DNA from: an uncultured Brevinematales bacterium
GTDB lineage: Bacteria > Spirochaetota > Brevinematia > Brevinematales > CAZQBT01
Direction of reading: 5' to 3'
Length of the DNA: 64,000 nucleotides
Assembly: GCA_964591955.1 (NCBI GenBank)
Contig: CAZQBT010000004.1
Span: 4,988-68,987, forward strand
Shown here: in pieces, positions 36,761 through 45,396 of the stretch
How positions within the stretch are numbered: position 1 is the stretch's first letter
Layout of the letters: every line of letters starts with the position of its first letter
Translations under genes and position numbers: made by a program
Notes under the pieces: model-generated
The model's database searches: none
What the model saw: the letters and a program-made list of their open reading frames with translations, nothing else
What the model was told of the DNA's origin: nothing

Positions 36761-36969
36761 TTTTGTCTATACGGGATAATTGCGTGTCAAATATCTTAAT
36801 ATGAATGCGCTTAAAAGTCAAGAAAAACCCCTCTTGATTTTTAAAAAGATTCTTTTTTTCTCATTCTCGTCCAAAGTAAAAACTTCCCATGTAACTCCAA
36901 AAATGAAACTTCCCTTTATTCCGTTTTTTGGTTCGCAGTATATTTTAACCGTTAATAACGAAAAAAACA

Positions 36970-36997
36970 TTGACTTTTTATCGGATTATTCTATGAT
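36970..36997 (+). promoter_or_regulatory. candidate sigma70 promoter for the small-ORF locus
   Basis: TTGACT-N16-TATGAT, about 130 nt upstream of the 37126 ATG. Confidence 0.45.
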
Positions 36998-37125
36998 ACT
37001 GTTGCAGAGAAAGACAAGAAAATCGCAGGGGGCACCTATATATTTTGCGATGAAATAAGCTAAAGATTTTTTTATCAAACTTCATTGTATTAACCTTTTA
37101 CAATATGCTCTAAAGGAGGTGCGAA

Positions 37126-37392
37126 ATGGACGGCAAAGCAGAAACCATAAGTTTTGATGGGGCGCGGTTATTTAAAGATACCGAAAAAGATTTGTTACTT
37201 GAGGATACAAGAAGCATTTTTAGACACCCCTACAAACGGCAGAAAATTAACTCCAAAATCAAAAAAGAAATTCGTTATGAAAAACTTATCGCCATAGATA
37301 TTCTTTGCGGCTCGTTTTGCAGCGGATATTTTTTCTTTTATAAGCAAGAAACTCAAATTATTAAAGCAAGCTATTCCTTTTTCGGTAAGTAA
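37126..37392 (+). CDS. hypothetical 88-aa protein with C-terminal hydrophobic segment
   Basis: Strong RBS AAAGGAGGTGCGAA-ATG. C-terminal LIAIDILCGSFCSGYFFFY. No recognisable family. Confidence 0.5.
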   Translation: MDGKAETISFDGARLFKDTEKDLLLEDTRSIFRHPYKRQKINSKIKKEIRYEKLIAIDILCGSFCSGYFFFYKQETQIIKASYSFFGK

Positions 37393-37607
37393 TGGGGGCA
37401 GTAATTTTGTCAATTGAAAAGTCGGAGAGGGATTATGAGTTTTCTAATTTCTAAAAAATAACGAGGGGCAGTGAATATCGGATAAGCGGTTTATAATAAA
37501 ATCTACAAACAAGGAGGCAATAATCAGGCAAAAATACGGGGATGGGATAAATTAAAATTTGTTGCTGTTGATACTATGCATAATCAAATTTAATCCCGGA
37601 GGATTTT

Positions 37608-37799
37608 ATGAAGTTTGGAGAGATATTGGTTCAAGAGAAAATTATTACGGAGGAGCAATTAAATAGAGCCTTGGATGAACAAAAAAATCATCCCCAAAAA
37701 AAGTTAGGTGAAATTTTGTTGGAATTGGATTTTATCGATATTGAGCAATTTACTAAAATTATCGACAGGCAGATGAGGGACGCAGGAGAAAGCAAATAG
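37608..37799 (+). CDS. stand-alone T2SSE_N / MshEN-like domain protein (63 aa)
   Basis: RBS GGAGG-N7-ATG. Two tandem 24-residue units, KFGEILVQEKIITEEQLNRALDEQ and KLGEILLELDFIDIEQFTKIIDRQ, match the (R)LGxx(LVI)(LVI)xxG(LVI)(LVI)xxxxLxxxLxxQ pattern. Confidence 0.6.
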   Translation: MKFGEILVQEKIITEEQLNRALDEQKNHPQKKLGEILLELDFIDIEQFTKIIDRQMRDAGESK

Positions 37800-37970
37800 A
37801 TTTTCCGATTATAGTCTGCAACAAAAGATACCGTATAATATCTTGCGCACATTTCAGGAAGTATAAAAAAGCCCTTGTCCATATAAAAATATAGTCGCAA
37901 AAAGGATTTTTGAACGGACAATAATAGTAATAAGCTAAAGTAAGAAAACAACCTGTTTTGAGTAGTGCAA

Positions 37971-37999
37971 GGGGCTGTCTTAAACGGCAGCCCTTTTTT
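37971..37999 (+). terminator. rho-independent terminator (copy 1 of an identical 29-nt hairpin)
   Basis: GGGGCTGTC-TTAAAC-GGCAGCCC-TTTTTT. Confidence 0.75.
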
Positions 38000-38182
38000 G
38001 TTATTCCCTAAAACCCTACGCTTAATTCCATTATTTGACATAAATTCCATTTCTAATTTATAATAACCTGTTAGGCTTGACGTTTATTTGCAATTACTCT
38101 TATTTATGCCTGTAAGAAGTCAATTCTTTCCCGCAAATCAGGCAATCGTTAATAAAAGAAAATGGTTTTAGGAGGTATAGTT

Positions 38183-39199
38183 ATGAAGGTTGTAAAAGGT
38201 CTATGCGTTTTAATTGCGCTTAGCGGATTAATATTTTTCGGGTGTGCACCGGCGGATACGGAAGATAACGGAGCCCCGACAAACGGAAGCGATAACGGTG
38301 AGACTGTCGAGGATGAAGACGATAACGGTGAGGCTGTCGAGGATGGATATCGTTTTATAACGGAATGGGGAAACTTAGGAGGTAACGATGGCCAGTTTCT
38401 CCAACCTTACGAGATAGCTGTGGATTTAGATGGAAATGTTTATGTTGCGGATACCGAAAATCACCGTATCCAAAAATTTACATCTAACGGAAATCATATT
38501 GCAACTTGGGGAGGGCCGGGTATGGGCAGTGGGGATGGTGAATTTTTAAATCCTTGTGGAGTTTTTGTAGATTCAAACAACACCGTTTATATTGCAGATA
38601 CTGCCAATCATCGCATCCAGAAATTTGAATCGGATGGAACTTTTATTACAAATTGGGGAAGCTACGGAAGTGGGGATGGGCAATTTAATCAGCCTTTAGG
38701 AATTACCGTAAATTCTGAAGGTATTATCTATATTGTGGATTTACAAAATCACCGTATCCAGAAATTTGAATCGGATGGAACTTTTATTACAAATTGGGGA
38801 AGTCAGGGAACTAACGATGGGGAATTTATGTGGCCTTCCAGTATAGTAGTGGATTCAAGCAATAACATTTATGTATCAGATATTCACAATCACCGTATCC
38901 AGAAATTTACGCCGGATGGAAATTTTATTACAAAATGGGGAACCGGAATAAATGGTAACGGACAACTTAGGTGGCCTAAGGGTATTGCTATAGATATAAG
39001 CAATAATATTTATGTCGCTAGTTCCGGCAATGATCGCATTCAGAAATTTACATCGGATGGAAATTTCATTACAAAATGGGGAAGTCAAGGAAGCGGTGAT
39101 GGGCAGTTTAATACTCCCCGGGGAATAGCAGTAGATTTAGAGGGAAATGTATATGTTGCAGATAAAGAAAATCACCGTATCCAAAAATTCAGAGAGTAG
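38183..39199 (+). CDS. NHL-repeat (six-bladed beta-propeller) lipoprotein
   Basis: AGGAGG-N7-ATG at 38183. Signal peptide plus lipobox LIFFGC. Acidic linker DNGETVEDEDDNGEAVEDG. Six ~47-aa repeats, each carrying a (N/E)(H/D)RIQKF motif. Confidence 0.85.
   Translation: MKVVKGLCVLIALSGLIFFGCAPADTEDNGAPTNGSDNGETVEDEDDNGEAVEDGYRFITEWGNLGGNDGQFLQPYEIAVDLDGNVYVADTENHRIQKFTSNGNHIATWGGPGMGSGDGEFLNPCGVFVDSNNTVYIADTANHRIQKFESDGTFITNWGSYGSGDGQFNQPLGITVNSEGIIYIVDLQNHRIQKFESDGTFITNWGSQGTNDGEFMWPSSIVVDSSNNIYVSDIHNHRIQKFTPDGNFITKWGTGINGNGQLRWPKGIAIDISNNIYVASSGNDRIQKFTSDGNFITKWGSQGSGDGQFNTPRGIAVDLEGNVYVADKENHRIQKFRE
38615..38802 (+). repeat. intragenic tandem repeat: two exact 47-nt copies (38615-38661, 38756-38802), period 141 nt
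   Basis: ATCCAGAAATTTGAATCGGATGGAACTTTTATTACAAATTGGGGAAG occurs twice, encoding IQKFESDGTFITNWGS in adjacent NHL blades. Confidence 0.9.
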
Positions 39200-39219: not shown

Positions 39220-39249
39220 GGGGCTGTCTTAAACGGCAGCCCTTTTTTT
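39220..39249. terminator. rho-independent terminator (copy 2 of the identical hairpin), placed between convergent NHL gene and dinB
   Basis: Same GGGGCTGTCTTAAACGGCAGCCCTTTTTT. The T-tract overlaps the dinB stop codon (39248-39250). Confidence 0.75.
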
Positions 39250-40339
39250 ATGCATAAGCGAAAGGCAGTTCCGGCTGTCGGGGCTTGTCAAGCATATACC
39301 CCTCACCCTCAAACGATGATATAGAGATACCCAAAAGACGCACCCTTCGCCTTCCCGCCTCGGTATGCAATAAAAGCTCGCTTGCGATTTTAAATATAGT
39401 TTGAGCATCGTTGACGGCACCCCTCAGCGAGCGGCTTCGGGTGATACGCGCAAAATTATCATACCGAACCTTGAGGGTAACGGTTTTGCCCTTGACCTCG
39501 TTTTTAACCATCCTTCGCTCAACCTCTCTTGCGATTTGGAAAAGACGGTCTTTCATATCCTCTAAGGACACAAGGTCGCGGGGGAAAGTCTGTTCCGCGC
39601 CTATTGACTTTCGGATATGGTCAGGGTTGACCTTGCGGTTGTCGATACCGCGCACTATATAATAGTAGAAAGCGCCCGCTTTACCGAAATATGAGATAAG
39701 GGAATGTATATCCAAGTTGCGCAAATCCGCCCCTATTCTTATCCCCATTGCAAGCATCCGCTTTTCGGTAGCCTTACCGACACCGTAGAATTTCCCCACG
39801 GGCAGGTTGTCGATAAAGTTAAGCGCTATAGCGGGAGGGATTACCGTAAGCCCGTCGGGCTTTTTATAGTCGGATGCGACTTTTGCGAGAAATTTGTTGT
39901 ATGAGACACCTGCAGATGAGGTTAGCCCCGTGGCGCGATGGATTTTTGCTTTAATCTCTCTTGCAATAGCCGTAGCGGATTTTATTCCAATCTTGTTTTG
40001 CGTAACGTCAAGATACGCCTCATCAAGCGACATAGGCTCAATTAAGTCGGTGTATTCGCAAAAAATATTCATAATTTGTATGGAGACCTTTTTGTAAACA
40101 TCAAAGCGCGGCGGAAGAAATATAGCAAAAGGGCATCGACGGTAAGCCTCGGCGGACGACATTGCCGAGTGTATCCCATAGCGACGTGCTTCATAGTTGG
40201 CGGTGGATACCACACCCCTGCTGTCGGGAGAACCCCCGACAACCACAGGCAAGCCTTTAAGCGAGGGGTTGTCTCTTACCTCAATTGCCGCATAGTAGGC
40301 ATCCATATCAATATGGATAATCTTTCTAATCTTATCCAT
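39248..40339 (-). CDS. dinB: DNA polymerase IV (Y-family translesion polymerase)
   Basis: IIHIDMDAYYAAIEVRDNP, SIDEAYLDV-like MSLDEAYLDVT; 363 aa; RBS AGGAGG. Confidence 0.9.
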   Translation of the reverse strand: MDKIRKIIHIDMDAYYAAIEVRDNPSLKGLPVVVGGSPDSRGVVSTANYEARRYGIHSAMSSAEAYRRCPFAIFLPPRFDVYKKVSIQIMNIFCEYTDLIEPMSLDEAYLDVTQNKIGIKSATAIAREIKAKIHRATGLTSSAGVSYNKFLAKVASDYKKPDGLTVIPPAIALNFIDNLPVGKFYGVGKATEKRMLAMGIRIGADLRNLDIHSLISYFGKAGAFYYYIVRGIDNRKVNPDHIRKSIGAEQTFPRDLVSLEDMKDRLFQIAREVERRMVKNEVKGKTVTLKVRYDNFARITRSRSLRGAVNDAQTIFKIASELLLHTEAGRRRVRLLGISISSFEGEGYMLDKPRQPELPFAYA

Positions 40340-40351
40340 AATTAGTTCCTC

Positions 40352-41011
40352 CTAATTTAATTTGTGGAACTGGTAAATCACCTTTCCTATAATAACCGGG
40401 GATTCGTTTGAACCCGCAGTGAGTTGCTCATTGGAATAGTTCGGGTTATCGCTTATAATATCAATAACGCCGGTCATCTTGAAATGGAGACGTTTAACGA
40501 ATAATTCTCCGTTGTGAAGAAGAATATAAATACCGTTGCCGTCATTGACAAGCCCCTGCACAAACAGGACAACGTCTCCCGATGCGAGAGTTGGGGACAT
40601 ACTGTCTCCTTTTACACGGATAGCCTTAACCTCGGCGGGTTGGTGAGGGTAGATAAGTTCGGGGGATATGGGGAGTTTGCCCAGCACCTCGGATTGAAAA
40701 TTAGCGATACCGTTGCCCGCGCAGGCGGATGAATCCAAGAAGTCGATTTGAATAAACTCATCCGTTGCGTTAGATACAGTCTGCGAGTCATCATCACAAA
40801 GAAACATCTCGCCCTTTCCCGTGAGAAGCCAGTTGATATTGACATCGAAAATCTCAGCGAGTTTTTGCATAATCTCATCGGGGAGTTTGCGGTTACCGTT
40901 TTCATACTGGGAGAGAGCGTTTTGATTAACACCGAGACGCTCGCCGAACTCGTTTTGGCCGAAACCGAATTCCTTTCTTACCGCGCGCAGGCGGTTGCCT
41001 ATTGTATCCAT
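40352..41011 (-). CDS. CI/LexA-type repressor: XRE-family HTH fused to S24 self-cleaving peptidase domain
   Basis: HTH QNEFGERLGVNQNALSQYENG. Candidate Ala-Gly cleavage site SSACAGNG. Ser motif GDSMSPT and Lys motif FVKRL. 12 nt upstream of dinB. Confidence 0.85.
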   Translation of the reverse strand: MDTIGNRLRAVRKEFGFGQNEFGERLGVNQNALSQYENGNRKLPDEIMQKLAEIFDVNINWLLTGKGEMFLCDDDSQTVSNATDEFIQIDFLDSSACAGNGIANFQSEVLGKLPISPELIYPHQPAEVKAIRVKGDSMSPTLASGDVVLFVQGLVNDGNGIYILLHNGELFVKRLHFKMTGVIDIISDNPNYSNEQLTAGSNESPVIIGKVIYQFHKLN

Positions 41012-41078
41012 AGTCGGACCTCCTTATCACAGTCCGTAATTTTAATATCACAAAAAAGAATATTTTTTAGAAAATCCC

Positions 41079-41107
41079 TTGACTCCGTTTCTCTTTTGTG
41101 CTATAAT
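41079..41107 (+). promoter_or_regulatory. rightward promoter of the phage-like module
   Basis: TTGACT(41079-84)-N17-TATAAT(41102-07). Confidence 0.65.
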
Positions 41108-41134
41108 TATACCGTAGAAAAACGGTTTTGTCAA
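41106..41134 (-). promoter_or_regulatory. leftward promoter of the repressor-dinB operon; its -10 overlaps the rightward -10
   Basis: Minus strand TTGACA(41134-29)-N17-TATAAT(41111-06). The shared palindrome is TATAATTATA. Confidence 0.65.
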
Positions 41135-41185
41135 GCGTTTTGGCAAAAATATATCGTTTTTCAATATTTTTTATAGGAGATTGAG

Positions 41186-41326
41186 ATGATTGATGGATTT
41201 GTTGATGTTTTGTATAAGTTTAAGAATTCAGTTGAGCTTTTTAAGTTGAGGTTTACCCGTGTTTCCAAAAGGCAGAGAGTCGAAATTTCCGATTATTTCC
41301 GCTCCTTGTCTATGGCAAAAAAATAG
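41186..41326 (+). CDS. hypothetical 46-aa protein, first gene after the rightward promoter (Cro position)
   Basis: RBS AGGAG-N7-ATG; MIDGFVDVLYKFKNSVELFKLRFTRVSKRQRVEISDYFRSLSMAKK*. No obvious HTH. Confidence 0.4.
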   Translation: MIDGFVDVLYKFKNSVELFKLRFTRVSKRQRVEISDYFRSLSMAKK

Positions 41327-41344
41327 TTATACAGGAGGTTTACT

Positions 41345-42205
41345 ATGGTAGAGATTCAACAAAAGGGCGCTCCGATTACCCATACCTTTGACGGTTACGC
41401 GGAAACGCTGAATAACCTGATTCCAGCGAATTACAAAAAATACTTTTCGCCGAACCCCTCCGCTGCTAAAACCATTATTGATGAGAGGCGCGAATTGCTT
41501 GATAATCTTTTGGATTCGCAGACGGACGTTTTTATGGCGGGAGGACAGATTTTTAAGAAAAAATCATATTGGCGAAAAGTCCTTGTTGCGCTTAATATAA
41601 GTCTTCAGAAAATTGAGGAATGGAAAGAAGCCGACAAAACGGGGAATATCACATACTTTTTTACCTACCGCGCAATTTTGCCTACGGGACAGTTCGCAGA
41701 CTCAACCGGCGCCTGCACGCAAAATGAGGAACATATAAACCGCACAATCCACGATACGCGAGCCACCGCCGAAACCCGCGCTAAAAATCGCGCCATCTCC
41801 GACCTTCTTGCTTTCGGTGAGGTTTCCGCCGAGGAGATTTCTCAAAATCGCGATACTCACTATACGGAAAAGGTTTCATCCCCCGCCCCTTCCGCACCCT
41901 CACCCTCCGATGAAATTGAGGCTTACAAGACTATACAATCGCTTCAGGAGGTCTTACCCGGCTCCGCTCAAAAACTTCTTTACGATGAGGTGCATAAATT
42001 ACATACGGCGGATGAGACACGGGTTATCGTCAAAAAGGTTATTGCACAGGAATTGAGTGAAATTGATAAACAGGGACATATGAGCCTTAAAGATATGAAA
42101 GCCCTGTGCAAGGAGCGGTTCGGGATTGCAGGATTTAATGAACTGCCCGTTGCGGATGCCGTTTCGCTTTTAAAAGAGGTGCAAAGCCGTATTACCGCTA
42201 TATAA
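41345..42205 (+). CDS. phage-like 286-aa protein; possible divergent single-strand-annealing/DNA-binding protein
   Basis: RBS CAGGAGG. The segment HDTRATAETRAKNRAISDLLAFGEVSAEE resembles the conserved helix of Rad52/ERF-type SSAPs. A Ser/Pro linker is followed by a helical C-terminal domain. Function is tentative. Confidence 0.5.
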   Translation: MVEIQQKGAPITHTFDGYAETLNNLIPANYKKYFSPNPSAAKTIIDERRELLDNLLDSQTDVFMAGGQIFKKKSYWRKVLVALNISLQKIEEWKEADKTGNITYFFTYRAILPTGQFADSTGACTQNEEHINRTIHDTRATAETRAKNRAISDLLAFGEVSAEEISQNRDTHYTEKVSSPAPSAPSPSDEIEAYKTIQSLQEVLPGSAQKLLYDEVHKLHTADETRVIVKKVIAQELSEIDKQGHMSLKDMKALCKERFGIAGFNELPVADAVSLLKEVQSRITAI

Positions 42206-42243
42206 CCGCGGGGTGTAAACTTTATAAAGGAGAGGGCAAGGTT

Positions 42244-42702
42244 ATGAAAAGTATTTCTCTTGATATTATCAAATTCGCTAAAAAGGTTGAGGTTCCGCAA
42301 AGGCATATCAAAACCTTTTTAAGACATAATTTTAAGCGTAATTGCGCAAAGTCGGTTGTGGAATTAAATATTGCGGAATACCGCGCGCTCAGGGATTATT
42401 TTACCTTTGAAAGAGAGACGGTCGCCCTGATTTTCTTTAACCCGTCCCGCGATAAAACACGGATTTTTAAAAACGTTATCAAACTTACCAAAATTTCCGC
42501 TATGCGATACCGCTATGAGTGGTTCAGATACAGCATATCAAACGGAAGACTTGTCCGTTTTAAACTCGGTGAAATTCCGGTCGATTTGATGGAAAAACAG
42601 CGCATCTGGCGAAGTCCCGTTGATAAAACGGTCGTAATTCTTAACGAGGAGGGGCAGTTTGAGGCGTTGTCGCGCCTGCCCGCTTCCGCTGTCGATAATT
42701 AA
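42244..42702 (+). CDS. hypothetical 152-aa protein (possible N-terminal HTH)
   Basis: RBS AAAGGAGAGG. No recognisable family. Confidence 0.5.
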   Translation: MKSISLDIIKFAKKVEVPQRHIKTFLRHNFKRNCAKSVVELNIAEYRALRDYFTFERETVALIFFNPSRDKTRIFKNVIKLTKISAMRYRYEWFRYSISNGRLVRFKLGEIPVDLMEKQRIWRSPVDKTVVILNEEGQFEALSRLPASAVDN

Positions 42703-42725
42703 ATCTGTCCTTACACGGAGGTTTT

Positions 42726-42959
42726 ATGGACGATATAGAAAAACTCGAAATATGGTTGAGTCTTGAAAAAATACTTACTCCAATCCAGTTGAAAGTGGTT
42801 CGCTTGCGGTTTTATGAAAATCTCACCGTAAACGAAACCATAAAAAAATCCAATCTGACCTCAAAGCGTCAGTATTACAAAATTATCAAAAGCATCGACA
42901 AACCCGCTTTGAAAAAATTGCTCGCGGACAGTTTGTTATACAGGAGGAACTATGTTTGA
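42726..42959 (+). CDS. small sigma-70 region-4-like HTH protein (phage late-activator position)
   Basis: LTPIQLKVVRLRFYENLTVNETIKKSNLTSKRQYYKII resembles sigma region 4; RBS GGAGG. Confidence 0.55.
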   Translation: MDDIEKLEIWLSLEKILTPIQLKVVRLRFYENLTVNETIKKSNLTSKRQYYKIIKSIDKPALKKLLADSLLYRRNYV

Positions 42960-43173
42960 TAAAAACCGTCTTTACGTGAAAGATTTTGATATGTTGCTCG
43001 AAGCCTGCGAGGGGGACTACGATAAGGCGATGGAGGTTTATTTGATTCTCAAACGTTCATATCGCGGTGAAAGAAATCAGGTCTATAAACGGAATAAAAA
43101 CCGTATGGTGAGGATAGGCGGCGAGGTAACTTTCCTAAAATTTTCACGGAATCGGAAGGGGGAAGCGGCATAA
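42952..43173 (+). CDS. hypothetical 73-aa protein
   Basis: RBS AGGAGG. Overlaps the preceding gene by 8 nt and the next gene by 1 nt. Confidence 0.45.
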   Translation: MFDKNRLYVKDFDMLLEACEGDYDKAMEVYLILKRSYRGERNQVYKRNKNRMVRIGGEVTFLKFSRNRKGEAA

Positions 43174-43610
43174 TGAAGTTCAGGTATGACCCCGTAATGA
43201 CTCCCCTGAAAACCGCATTGCTTGTTTCCGATAAAAAAAATAAAACCGAGATAGCCGAAATTTTCAGGATACCCCCCGCGGATTTTGACGCTCTTTTGAT
43301 AAAATATCCCGAACTGAAAGAGGCGCTTGACGGCGGAAAGGAATATGTCAAATCGAAAATTGAGTCGGCGCTTTTAAAACGCGCTATGGGATACAGGTAT
43401 ATCGAAATTTATTACAGGCGATGCGAGGAAACCGGAAGCCGTATCGCGGATAAATGGGTTACAAAACAAAAAGAACCCGACCTCAACGCCATAAAATACT
43501 GGCTCGCCCATCGCGTTCCCGCCGAGTGGGGACTTACCGAAAAAGAGGCGCAAAAAGTCAAAGAAGATGCCGTTAAGATTTTCCTTGAGCAAATCGAGAG
43601 GATAAAATGA
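43173..43610 (+). CDS. terS: phage terminase small subunit-like protein
   Basis: N-terminal HTH-like KTEIAEIFRIPPADFDALL plus ...LLKRAMGY...KEPDLNAIKYWLAHRVPAEWG, typical of small terminase families. Confidence 0.6.
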   Translation: MKFRYDPVMTPLKTALLVSDKKNKTEIAEIFRIPPADFDALLIKYPELKEALDGGKEYVKSKIESALLKRAMGYRYIEIYYRRCEETGSRIADKWVTKQKEPDLNAIKYWLAHRVPAEWGLTEKEAQKVKEDAVKIFLEQIERIK

Positions 43611-43718
43611 CCTGCTTCGCGTCCCTCTCAATACGCTTCAACTACTCTTTTCTCTCACGCTCAATAACCGCGACAGAGCCACAAAGACACGGATGGCTCA
43701 TCTTGATACTACTCCTCA

Positions 43719-43757
43719 CCAATTTGCGGACTGCTTCAGGTGTGCTTCACAAATTGG
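43719..43757 (+). repeat. structured element: 8-bp inverted repeat enclosing two TGCTTCA direct repeats
   Basis: CCAATTTG-cggac-TGCTTCA-ggtg-TGCTTCA-CAAATTGG. Direct repeats are 11 nt apart. A third GCTTCA lies at 43635. Confidence 0.6.
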
Positions 43758-43971
43758 AGAGGGATGTATCCATTGGGAACTCTATCCGCGTGAACTTACC
43801 GCCTGTGGACAGAATTTGAATAAGCGAAAAAGAAACTAAGAAAAAACTTGAAAAATCGCATTATGGCTTTGGGTTTATCAGCCCATAATAAATAAAATAT
43901 CCCGTCGTTTTTTTGACCTATTTGCGCAAATAATATAAACTGTTCTGATTATATTTTCGGAGAGTGTTTTA

Positions 43972-45396
43972 GTGCCCCTGAGTTTCCATAATACGCTTAC
44001 AAGAAGCGTTGAAGAATTTACACCGGTTAATCCGGGCGAGGTGAGATTTTATGCTTGTGGTCCCACTGTTTACAACTACCCCCACATCGGCAATCTTCGC
44101 ACCTTCCTTTTTTCAGACTTATTGCATAGATGGCTTATTTATCGCGGTTACAAAGTAAATTTCATTATGAATCTTACCGATGTTGATGATAAAACTATTC
44201 GCAATTCAATTGAAAGAAATATGCCGTTATCCGATTATACGAAAATCTATAAACAGGCTTTTTTTGACGATTTGGACACGCTGAATGTCAAGCGCGCCTC
44301 GCTTTACCCATGCGCTACCGACAATATTCCCGAAATGATTGATATGATACAATCCCTGCTTGACAAGGGTCTTGCTTATGAAACCGATGACGGGGTTTAT
44401 TTTAATGTCAGGGCGTTTGACGGATACGGCAAATTATCCCGTCTCGATAAATCAAAACTCCTGTCGGGTGCAAGCGGAAGGGTTGCTAATGATGAGTATG
44501 AGCGCGAGGATATTTCTGATTTTGCACTGTGGAAAAAGTGGACTCCCGATGACGGGAATATTAAATGGAAAGCTCCTTTCGGCGAGGGACGTCCGGGGTG
44601 GCATATTGAATGTTCCGTTATGAGTATGAAATATCTCGGCGTTCCGATTGATATTCATGCAGGCGGCGTTGACCTCATTTTCCCTCACCACGAAAACGAG
44701 ATTGCTCAAAGTGAAGGGGCAACCGGAAAACCCTTTGCAAATTACTGGCTACACGTTACACATCTTGTAGTGGACGGGGAAAAGATGTCAAAATCAAAGG
44801 GCAATTTCTATACCCTTCGCGACCTGCTTGACAAGGGATACAGCCCAAGGGCAATACGCTATCTCCTTTATACCGCGCACTACCGAAAACCCCTGAACTT
44901 TACGCTCGACGGGATTAAGGCAAGCGAAAACGCCCTTGACCGTCTTGATGATTTTGCGCTGATGCTTAAAAATATCAAATTTGATAGCGAAAACGATAAA
45001 GAATTAACGGATATACTTAACCGCCGGTCGGCTAAATTTGAGGAAGCTGTCGATAACGACCTTAATATAGCGGAGGGTATGGGCTCAATATTTGAACTTG
45101 TCCGCGCTTTTAACGAAAATTCCGATAAAATAACGGTTTCGCTTGCTAAGGAAACCTTAGATTTCCTCTCGAAAATAGACGGCGTTCTGGGTTTCTTGGA
45201 TATGGAAAAAGAGGCTACGTTAACCGATGAGGAAAAGAGACTTATAGATGAAAGAGCAGAGGCGCGAAAGGCTAAAGATTTTGCGCGTTCCGATGAAATC
45301 CGTGATTTACTCTTGGAAAAAGGCATAGAAATACGTGACACATCAGACGGCATTGTATGGAAACGAATTAACCGTGTAAAGGAGGAAGCCTTATGA
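43972..45396 (+). CDS. cysS: cysteine--tRNA ligase
   Basis: GTG start; HIGN and KMSKS class I signatures; 474 aa. Confidence 0.95.
   Translation: MPLSFHNTLTRSVEEFTPVNPGEVRFYACGPTVYNYPHIGNLRTFLFSDLLHRWLIYRGYKVNFIMNLTDVDDKTIRNSIERNMPLSDYTKIYKQAFFDDLDTLNVKRASLYPCATDNIPEMIDMIQSLLDKGLAYETDDGVYFNVRAFDGYGKLSRLDKSKLLSGASGRVANDEYEREDISDFALWKKWTPDDGNIKWKAPFGEGRPGWHIECSVMSMKYLGVPIDIHAGGVDLIFPHHENEIAQSEGATGKPFANYWLHVTHLVVDGEKMSKSKGNFYTLRDLLDKGYSPRAIRYLLYTAHYRKPLNFTLDGIKASENALDRLDDFALMLKNIKFDSENDKELTDILNRRSAKFEEAVDNDLNIAEGMGSIFELVRAFNENSDKITVSLAKETLDFLSKIDGVLGFLDMEKEATLTDEEKRLIDERAEARKAKDFARSDEIRDLLLEKGIEIRDTSDGIVWKRINRVKEEAL

Follow-up and report, generated by a model that had tools for sequence, protein, structure and literature searches.

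A phage-derived gene cluster was identified at positions 39248 to 43971 of a 64-kb stretch of contig CAZQBT010000004.1 from an uncultured Brevinematales bacterium (referred to below as the window; coordinates given without a locus name are window positions). The cluster probably represents a fixed, non-mobile and reduced phage-derived switch, belonging to a rare module of Brevinematales-type spirochaetes, whose likely remaining output is a DNA polymerase IV (DinB) together with a single-strand annealing protein (SSAP). That the cluster derives by reduction from a conserved module of phage origin was much firmer than the regulatory logic proposed for it below. An earlier note on this DNA had already described a phage-derived element devoid of integrase and capsid genes, and this was supported here by gene matches and by related loci.

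Gene content and related loci

The locus is composed of a repressor gene and dinB on the minus strand, facing six genes on the plus strand:

39248..40339, minus strand, dinB, complete Y-family DNA polymerase IV (363 aa)
40352..41011, minus strand, CI-type repressor with XRE helix-turn-helix (HTH) and S24 domains (219 aa; Pfam, PHROG and motifs)
41186..41326, plus strand, basic peptide encoded at the head of the rightward operon (46 aa; positional orthologues)
41345..42205, plus strand, predicted SSAP of the Rad52 superfamily (286 aa; predicted fold)
42244..42702, plus strand, hallmark protein of the module (152 aa; best-conserved small gene)
42726..42959, plus strand, small protein, possibly HTH (77 aa; Sigma70_r4 match below cut-off)
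42952..43173, plus strand, conserved protein (73 aa; orthologues only)
43173..43610, plus strand, protein resembling the terminase small subunit (TerS), without a large subunit (TerL) behind it (145 aa; small-terminase PHROGs)
43611..43971, no strand, non-coding gap of 361 nt between the TerS-like gene and cysS, at the position of TerL in relatives

These eight open reading frames (ORFs), their strands, spacing and strong ribosome-binding sites (RBSs) were as the earlier note had read them. A GTG start codon of cysS was located at 43972, 361 nt past the TerS-like gene. All eight genes were preceded by an RBS of GGAGG or AGGAG type, and dinB displayed its own AGGAGG. Repressor and dinB were separated by 12 nt; plus-strand ORFs were spaced by 18 to 38 nt or overlapped, by 8 nt for the 77-aa and 73-aa genes and by 1 nt for the 73-aa and TerS-like genes. 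GC content and GC at third codon positions (GC3) were near those of the host, which points to long residence. Layout was identical in independent metagenome contigs of the window species, with one single-nucleotide polymorphism (SNP) overall, and the insertion context was the same in every contig recovered. An apparent CysS variant (P0130) turned out to lie on the same contig as locus L007 and was not a separate variant.

Related loci were found in L001 (a 184-kb ENA contig), L002 (Spirochaetes bacterium GWF1_51_8), L004 (Brevinematales bacterium DeMMO6_14), L015, L016/L017 and L020. They displayed the same divergent gene order, and their proteins were 30-54% identical to those of the window. 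A chance assembly of these genes is excluded by syntenic orthologues at this level of identity, present in at least six further loci. The module is rare: a search of GTDB representatives, IMG/VR and JGI metagenomes returned only two Brevinematales metagenome-assembled genomes and two metagenome contigs, none of them viral.

In six out of six intact related loci reaching that far, the TerS gene was directly followed by a TerL of 414-429 aa. Its start overlapped the TerS gene in five of the six and lay 44 nt downstream in L015. TerL was joined to the module in L001, L002, L004, L015 and L020, and broken in L025. These TerL proteins carried Terminase_6N and Terminase_3C domains (phrog_2, E 1.3e-46) and represented the best-conserved gene of the module, at 57-60% identity across deep lineages. 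A Mu-type portal gene was found within a few kb in L002, L004, L015, L016 and L020, at variable positions and with unrelated genes in between. Neither integrase nor recognisable capsid or tail genes were detected within 10 kb on either side of seven related loci, and attachment (att) repeats and the contiguous structural and lysis modules of a prophage were absent both there and in the window. In L002, Beta_helix and VanY genes downstream of TerL displayed weak matches to tail-type PHROGs (E 7e-6 and 1.7e-7). No relevant literature on Brevinematales prophages was found.

Within the clade formed by L002, L004, L016 and L020, the ratio of non-synonymous to synonymous substitution rates (dN/dS) was 0.04-0.39 for every module gene, with 0.09-0.21 for TerL, 0.07-0.22 for the portal, 0.20-0.32 for TerS and 0.19-0.23 for the SSAP. 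In the same clade, flanking genes for adenosine deaminase and DNA-alkylation repair displayed a dS close to that of the module. Judged by these substitution patterns, the module of this clade behaves as a vertically inherited chromosomal locus under selection and not as an active or rotting prophage. Among the outcomes that, according to the earlier note, would speak against it were that relatives carry the same genes within ordinary full-length prophages, and that the plus-strand ORFs lack purifying selection. On the first, the relatives were devoid of integrase and capsid genes and under purifying selection, a result that neither refutes nor confirms its reading; on the second, what was obtained are the ratios of the relatives' clade given above (0.04-0.39).

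A decaying copy of the module was encountered in L025 (1600-5050), where TerL was spread over three frames, the SSAP gene was frameshifted near its C-terminus and TerS lacked its first ~45 residues, while the 152-, 78- and 79-aa genes were intact; an assembly error is possible.

Two proteins of ~294-302 and ~117-134 aa always preceded the Mu-type portal in one clade (L002 1945-4504; L004 4558-7474; L016 1-2279; L020 14-2078). They matched no family, displayed dN/dS of 0.09-0.22 and may be head proteins that escaped recognition. Beside this pair, L004 had a ThiF/E1-like gene with small upstream ORFs, which could belong to a ubiquitin-like defence system.

TerS-like protein and lost phage functions

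According to the earlier note, the module stops at TerS. TerL was indeed absent from the window, but as TerL comes next in the six intact relatives, this end is a lineage-specific truncation. When all neighbours of three related loci were compared with the window by tblastn, matches were confined to the repressor and five plus-strand genes, and no TerL, portal or other neighbour was found in the 64 kb. No remnant of TerL was detected between 43611 and 43971 with three TerL proteins as queries (tblastn), and ORFs of this gap had no family match. It contained a weak promoter-like site (43913-43941, 9/12) upstream of cysS.

The reported absence of genes for integrase, replicase, TerL, portal, capsid, tail and lysis functions was borne out in the window by tblastn and family searches alike. 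Neither integrase, AlpA nor primase-replicase was found among the ORFs of the locus or its flanks (Pfam, PHROGs, NCBIfam); no integrase or phage pseudogene was present in 36780-38160 or 43611-43971, and 36762-38161 gave no phage DNA match. Att repeats and a duplication of tRNA-Thr were not found, the locus lying on the 5' side of this tRNA gene. The only Rfam elements between 34 and 48 kb were tRNA-Trp and tRNA-Thr, and PADLOC defence models applied to the component proteins gave only generic HTH matches for the repressor.

The best match of the 145-aa protein was phrog_309 (E 5.3e-19, labelled 'terminase small subunit'), confined to aa 40-120, followed by phrog_23444 (E 3.5e-7). Seven of the seven members of its family matched TerS PHROGs (best E 9e-39), in agreement with the small-terminase signature reported earlier for this ORF. 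The failure of every small-terminase model had been named as evidence against the earlier reading: PHROG models matched, while Pfam, NCBIfam and PDB sequences gave no terminase match and a profile comparison with PDB returned generic HTH only. In P335 phages of Lactococcus, homologues bear the annotation TerS or 'activator of late transcription' and lie upstream of HNH-terS-terL-portal. The TerS label is thus probable, not certain, on these matches.

Change was faster in the TerS-like gene than in the rest of the module. It retained 26 of the 42 residues (62%) that are invariant in five relatives, against 207 of 246 (84%) for the other five genes (Fisher p = 0.002), and no comparable acceleration of TerS was seen in sister lineages keeping TerL. 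The most diverged part was the N-terminal HTH region, outside the PHROG match. Such drift would be the pattern expected of relaxed or changed constraint after loss of the partner.

Repressor, polymerase and shared promoter region

The repressor matched HTH_19 (61.6 bits) and Peptidase_S24 (67.2 bits), both above cut-off in Pfam, as well as phrog_4 (E 1.2e-51). As the earlier note had proposed for a self-cleaving repressor, the expected residues were all present, namely Ala98-Gly99 in ACAGNG (aa 96-101), Ser137 in GDSMSPT (aa 135-141) and Lys173 in FVKRL (aa 171-175). The three motifs were kept in five orthologues (42-47% identical), and the recognition helix QNALSQYENG was identical in four of these five relatives, L001 differing at one residue. 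By its sequence, the protein is a LexA/CI-type S24 protein with every hallmark of self-cleavage, for which cleavage stimulated by activated RecA is predicted. Identity with canonical LexA was rejected, as only HTH families of the XRE type matched and LexA_DNA_bind (PF01726) did not (Pfam).

The polymerase found 12 nt behind the repressor is complete, as had been claimed: it displayed all domains (IMS, IMS_C and IMS_HHH in Pfam), scored 463.5 bits against a cut-off of 256 with the Pol IV equivalog of NCBIfam (PRK02406, NF002677) and met DNA polymerase IV criteria including the catalytic acidic residues (DMD and DE motifs). Its motifs are HIDMDAYYA (aa 9-17), SLDEAYLD (aa 104-111) and a clamp-binding-like C-terminal QPELPF (aa 355-360). 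With best homologues 55-62% identical and spread over many phyla, it is an ordinary cellular-type Pol IV. None of its closest homologues (nearest relatives on long contigs) stood beside an S24 repressor, and the pairing therefore appears specific to the window lineage. We infer that dinB and the repressor almost certainly share a transcript. A promoter-like site was noticed inside the repressor gene (40523-40551, minus strand, TTGTCA-17-TATATT, 10/12), ~180 nt upstream of dinB; it could allow repressor-independent transcription of dinB, and the number of such sites was within chance expectation.

The slot occupied by dinB held other genes in relatives: NTase and FRG in L002 (7368-8605), FRG in L004 (7673-8614), a 390-aa protein with radical SAM and Fic in L016 (2329-4967), HEPN, NTase and FRG in L020 (2128-3916) and PIN in L025 (67-486). 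The radical SAM gene of L016 was accompanied by one of DUF2281/Fic type. L001 and L015 had no co-directional cargo gene behind the repressor. The gap between repressor and cargo was 63-113 nt in relatives versus 12 nt to dinB in the window. Sequence comparison thus indicates a variable hot spot for cargo of defence or toxin-antitoxin type, taken by dinB in the window. Another insertion, a DUF433/DUF5615 pair, was seen just past TerL in L004 and L020.

The 174 nt between repressor and 46-aa peptide genes contained two near-perfect opposed sigma-70 promoters and candidate operators:

41079..41134, no strand, switch core with opposed sigma-70 promoters sharing the palindromic -10 TATAATTATA (41102-41111)
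41025..41052, no strand, candidate operators in the repressor leader, palindrome TATCAC-N5-GTAATT and half-site ATATCACA

The rightward promoter reads TTGACT (41079)-17-TATAAT (11/12, with extended TG) and the leftward one TTGACA (41134)-17-TATAAT (12/12). Since their -10 hexamers overlap in the palindrome, RNA polymerase should occupy one promoter or the other. The overlapping pair was kept in the six related loci compared. In the repressor leader, all relatives displayed a palindrome ATC[A/T]C-N5-G[A/T]GAT at the same position; that of the window (41025-41041) had one half-site mismatch and was followed by an additional half-site at 41045-52. A second palindrome, GTGAT-N8-ATCAC, spanned the shared -10 in L001, L002, L004, L016 and L020. 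An inverted repeat ACCGT-N6-ACGGT (41111-41126), located at the predicted rightward start site, was unique to the window. A wider regulon within the window was not retained, as each operator-like site checked lay within a gene, namely rpoA, that of L24 or one of two ORFs which size and position suggest to be EF-Tu and EF-G, and was judged compositional.

Annealing protein and small rightward proteins

The 286-aa protein, initially noted as a possible recombination protein, gave no match in Pfam, NCBIfam or PHROGs, and the curated SSAP families Rad52_Rad22, ERF, RecT and Sak were not matched. None of its 129 homologues displayed a recombinase Pfam domain, and a few carried PF04434 only. An AlphaFold (AF2) model built from 51 homologues (predicted local distance difference test score, pLDDT, 87.6) consisted of an SSAP core (~aa 58-165) joined by a linker to a helical domain at the C-terminus. 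With this core, the top 17 Foldseek matches in PDB were human RAD52, with yeast Mgm101 lower (probability ~1.0). A comparison of the model with predicted viral structures (BFVD) gave 68 matches at E <= 1e-3, those with names being RecT, Rad52, ERF and SSAP. On its modelled fold, the protein is an annealing protein of the Rad52 superfamily, belonging to an uncurated sequence family and with annealing activity predicted. These 129 homologues, some of them from Methanobrevibacter viruses, seem to form an SSAP family that is uncurated and spans viruses of bacteria and archaea. A distant homologue of 252 aa was encountered on a true phage contig (L018 10001-11157), with a single-stranded DNA-binding protein gene directly downstream.

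Orthologues of the 152-aa hallmark protein were 49-55% identical, with 31 invariant columns. The family is very narrow, with 12 clusters among 5.8 billion and eight representatives among 1.84 billion, and had no relative in IMG/VR viral contigs. A PDB search with its AF2 model (pLDDT 80.6) returned nothing at E < 0.03. The 73-aa protein (orthologues 36-45% identical, 18 invariant columns) had no family match in Pfam, PHROGs or NCBIfam.

The 77-aa protein had been read as sigma-70 region 4 in the position of a late activator. This assignment is weak: Sigma70_r4 matched at E 2.3e-4 and 21 bits, below the Pfam cut-off of 24.1, and none of seven orthologues (27-35% identical) displayed the match. 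In temperate siphoviruses, late regulators upstream of terS belong to the RinA, ArpU and LtrA families (PMC3753634), TP901-1 Alt being comparable, and by analogy the position of the 77-aa gene would fit the LtrA class (PMC3753634). A LtrA-like regulator was nevertheless rejected, as the protein has about half the size of Ltr proteins (~130 aa), scored under the Sigma70_r4 threshold and is separated from terS by the 73-aa gene, and as no late genes are left.

The 46-aa ORF had orthologues by position in L001, L004, L015 and L016, with a common basic motif of the type R-x-S/T-x-R-Q/R-x-x-E, and is therefore regarded as a real gene. Its product matched no family (Pfam, PHROGs, NCBIfam) and is not a Cro-like HTH protein. 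A complete CI/Cro switch, as earlier proposed, consequently overstates the case: the CI-type repressor is there, but the first plus-strand gene encodes this basic peptide and no Cro-like HTH gene was found.

Flanking region

Sequences between tRNA-Thr and dinB displayed some further features:

36762..38161, low-GC (33%) stretch from tRNA-Thr to the NHL-repeat gene
37608..37799, stand-alone MshEN-type cyclic-di-GMP-binding domain protein of 63 aa (NF053729, 61.9 bits against a cut-off of 38)
37967..37999, GC-rich hairpin terminator, first copy
38162..39199, NHL-repeat/beta-propeller gene, lipoprotein-like product of 345 aa
39216..39248, no strand, GC-rich hairpin terminator where the NHL-repeat gene and dinB converge, near-identical copy of that at 37967-37999

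The MshEN-type protein was the sole recognisable product of the low-GC stretch. The NHL protein was composed of six tandem units of 141 nt; it scored 284 bits with a ScyF-type model, under cut-off, and its last blade weakly matched PD-T4-6 of PADLOC (E 5e-9). The two 33-nt hairpins bracketing its gene were identical at 32 of 33 nt, with an identical core of 29 nt; no third copy was present in the window and none would be expected by chance. This suggests that the NHL gene arrived beside dinB by insertion or duplication, together with its terminator.

Proposed mechanism and competing explanations

In the proposed scheme, the immunity and early region of a phage would have been retained. The leftward consensus promoter would drive a repressor-dinB operon, and the rightward promoter, whose -10 overlaps that of the former, would drive the 46-aa peptide, the SSAP, three small proteins and the TerS-like protein. 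Repressor dimers bound to ATCAC-type operators would silence the rightward operon and restrain their own. Upon DNA damage, active RecA would stimulate self-cleavage of the repressor at Ala98-Gly99 and both promoters would be released, raising DinB for translesion synthesis and the annealing protein for recombination. Repressor binding, RecA dependence and induction by damage are steps that we infer. As TerL, portal, capsid, integrase and replication genes are absent, neither excision nor particle formation or packaging is possible, and the switch would at most constitute a self-contained SOS-like unit for translesion synthesis and recombination, in which the TerS-like gene, its partner lost, would be drifting.

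Several observations weigh against this scheme. The palindrome spanning the shared -10 was degraded to GTGCT...ACCGT in the window, and likewise in L015, and the rightward promoter may therefore be weakly or differently controlled. Should the leftward promoter resemble lambda PRM in its behaviour, damage would lower DinB and not raise it. The operator scan covered a 64-kb window made up mostly of translation genes. Selection was measured in the relatives' clade, contigs of the window species being near-identical. Finally, the decay seen in L025 may mean that the window copy is simply a younger wreck.

A decaying cryptic-prophage fragment devoid of current function, with ORFs intact through recency of decay and dinB as a chance host neighbour, would agree with the degraded operator, with the loss of TerL and portal, with the acceleration of the TerS-like gene at conserved sites and with a family able to pseudogenise, as seen in L025. 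We nevertheless consider it unlikely. Eight of the eight ORFs were intact with strong RBSs, and the five genes other than TerS held 84% of invariant residues, a level equal to that of TerL-bearing sister lineages, while the module is under purifying selection in relatives. Loss of TerL without remnant and an ameliorated composition indicate a long time elapsed without more ORF decay, and the 12-nt junction with a dedicated dinB RBS resembles an operon fusion, relatives having gaps of 63-113 nt.

The locus could alternatively be the control region and TerS of a dispersed, domesticated system for particle formation or packaging, resembling a gene transfer agent, with its other genes elsewhere in the genome. 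Gene transfer agents and other domesticated prophage loci share several traits with the module of the related clade, namely a fixed locus without integrase, co-divergence with flanking genes and purifying selection. The module of relatives, with TerL and a variably placed portal nearby, is indeed selected at a fixed chromosomal site without integrase, and as portal and TerL are already split there by unrelated cargo, more dispersal is conceivable. Such a system is improbable for the window, since recognisable capsid or tail genes were missing from the 10 kb around related loci, apart from the weak tail-type matches of L002; as compared with gene transfer agents, capsid, tail and lysis genes were not identified and TerL and portal, not found in the 64 kb, are lost too. 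The relaxed or altered constraint on the TerS-like protein would be unexpected if it still served a TerL, and the hallmark gene is without IMG/VR relative.

Least probable is the phage satellite considered in the earlier note, a minimalist element keeping TerS to redirect packaging by a helper phage to itself. The retention of TerS while TerL and capsid genes are gone, together with a repressor able in principle to detect a helper phage or an SOS response, would suit it, and satellites of the PICI, cfPICI and PICMI types (PMC10085698, PMC10803314) are likewise small, have a repressor and TerS and lack tail and lysis genes. All tests for satellite core genes were negative, however. PICI core genes are integrase, AlpA and primase-replicase (PMC10085698), and neither these nor att repeats, insertion at a tRNA 3' end or any sign of mobility was found in the window, its insertion context being invariant in all recovered contigs. 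cfPICI possess capsid, portal, head-tail adaptor/connector, terL and integrase among nine to 11 core components (PMC10085698, PMC10803314); they are a poor fit, as relatives displayed terL and portal only, without capsid or head-tail connector genes. Relatives also encode a TerL of their own, in contrast to satellites of PICI or PICMI type, the DNA-binding N-terminal region was the most diverged part of TerS, and the hallmark gene did not occur in IMG/VR viral contigs.

Relation to known systems

The exact composition of the locus differs from described systems, as had been supposed, but couplings of S24 repressors with dinB have been described (PMC13148647, PMC8565304). In Francisella, FddR is a phage-type S24 repressor, and fddR paralogues form self-contained divergent units with dinB (PMC13148647). 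In Bacteroidetes, phage-like S24 repressors (non-canonical LexA) control SOS genes including dinB (PMC8565304), and HdiR of Streptococcaceae (streptococcal/lactococcal) is a further case of repressor capture, as cited in PMC8565304. According to the proposed origin model, a prophage is disrupted and cellular SOS genes then come under its repressor (PMC8565304, PMC13148647), and by analogy the window locus appears to illustrate this route.

The co-opted repressors share with the window an XRE/CI-type HTH and S24 domain with Ala-Gly, Ser and Lys, local coupling to dinB in a self-contained unit, a divergent partner and a palindromic operator in the shared promoter region. They differ in that dinB of the window is part of the repressor's operon (12-nt gap, cargo slot) and not divergent, that the divergent partner is a recognisable six-gene phage early operon from SSAP to TerS, that the operator is different and that a terminase-portal stage is preserved under selection in relatives. 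In addition, the predicted regulon of the window system is limited to the locus.

In lambda, the accessory genes rexAB are located directly downstream of cI, on the repressor transcript. The cargo behind the repressor (FRG, NTase/HEPN, Fic, PIN and radical SAM in relatives, dinB in the window) recalls such lambdoid immunity regions. In contrast to lambda, no Cro-type gene is present, the promoters share -10 elements and are not separated by OR1-3, the cargo of the window is a DNA polymerase and the remaining phage was lost. The module also resembles the early region of temperate siphoviruses in its repressor, divergent early operon, small DNA-binding proteins and terS-terL-portal order.

Significance

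Besides the switch itself, the analysis uncovered a sequence family with the Rad52 annealing fold outside Pfam, PHROGs and NCBIfam, the very narrow 152-aa hallmark family, and a conserved terminase-portal module without integrase or capsid.

Published examples of SOS-type repressors of phage origin are end states from which the phage has gone (PMC13148647, PMC8565304). The window locus displays the proposed middle state, a phage repressor in operon with a cellular-type dinB and still facing phage early genes, while relatives preserve earlier states, in which TerL and portal are still there and the slot of dinB is filled by other cargo. More tentatively, and with considerable doubt, Brevinematales-type spirochaetes might possess a class of domesticated phage modules, in which a damage-sensing CI-type repressor with swappable cargo faces a vertically inherited operon of SSAP, 152-aa protein, TerS and TerL, with a portal nearby and no integrase or capsid, selected for a cellular function and remodelled to an SOS-like unit in the window copy. 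If this were true, that function could lie in recombination or repair induced by damage, in the packaging of DNA to be transferred or in interference with phages, and the window copy would show, in a living organism, a halfway stage in the emergence of a LexA-like regulon around a repressor of phage origin.

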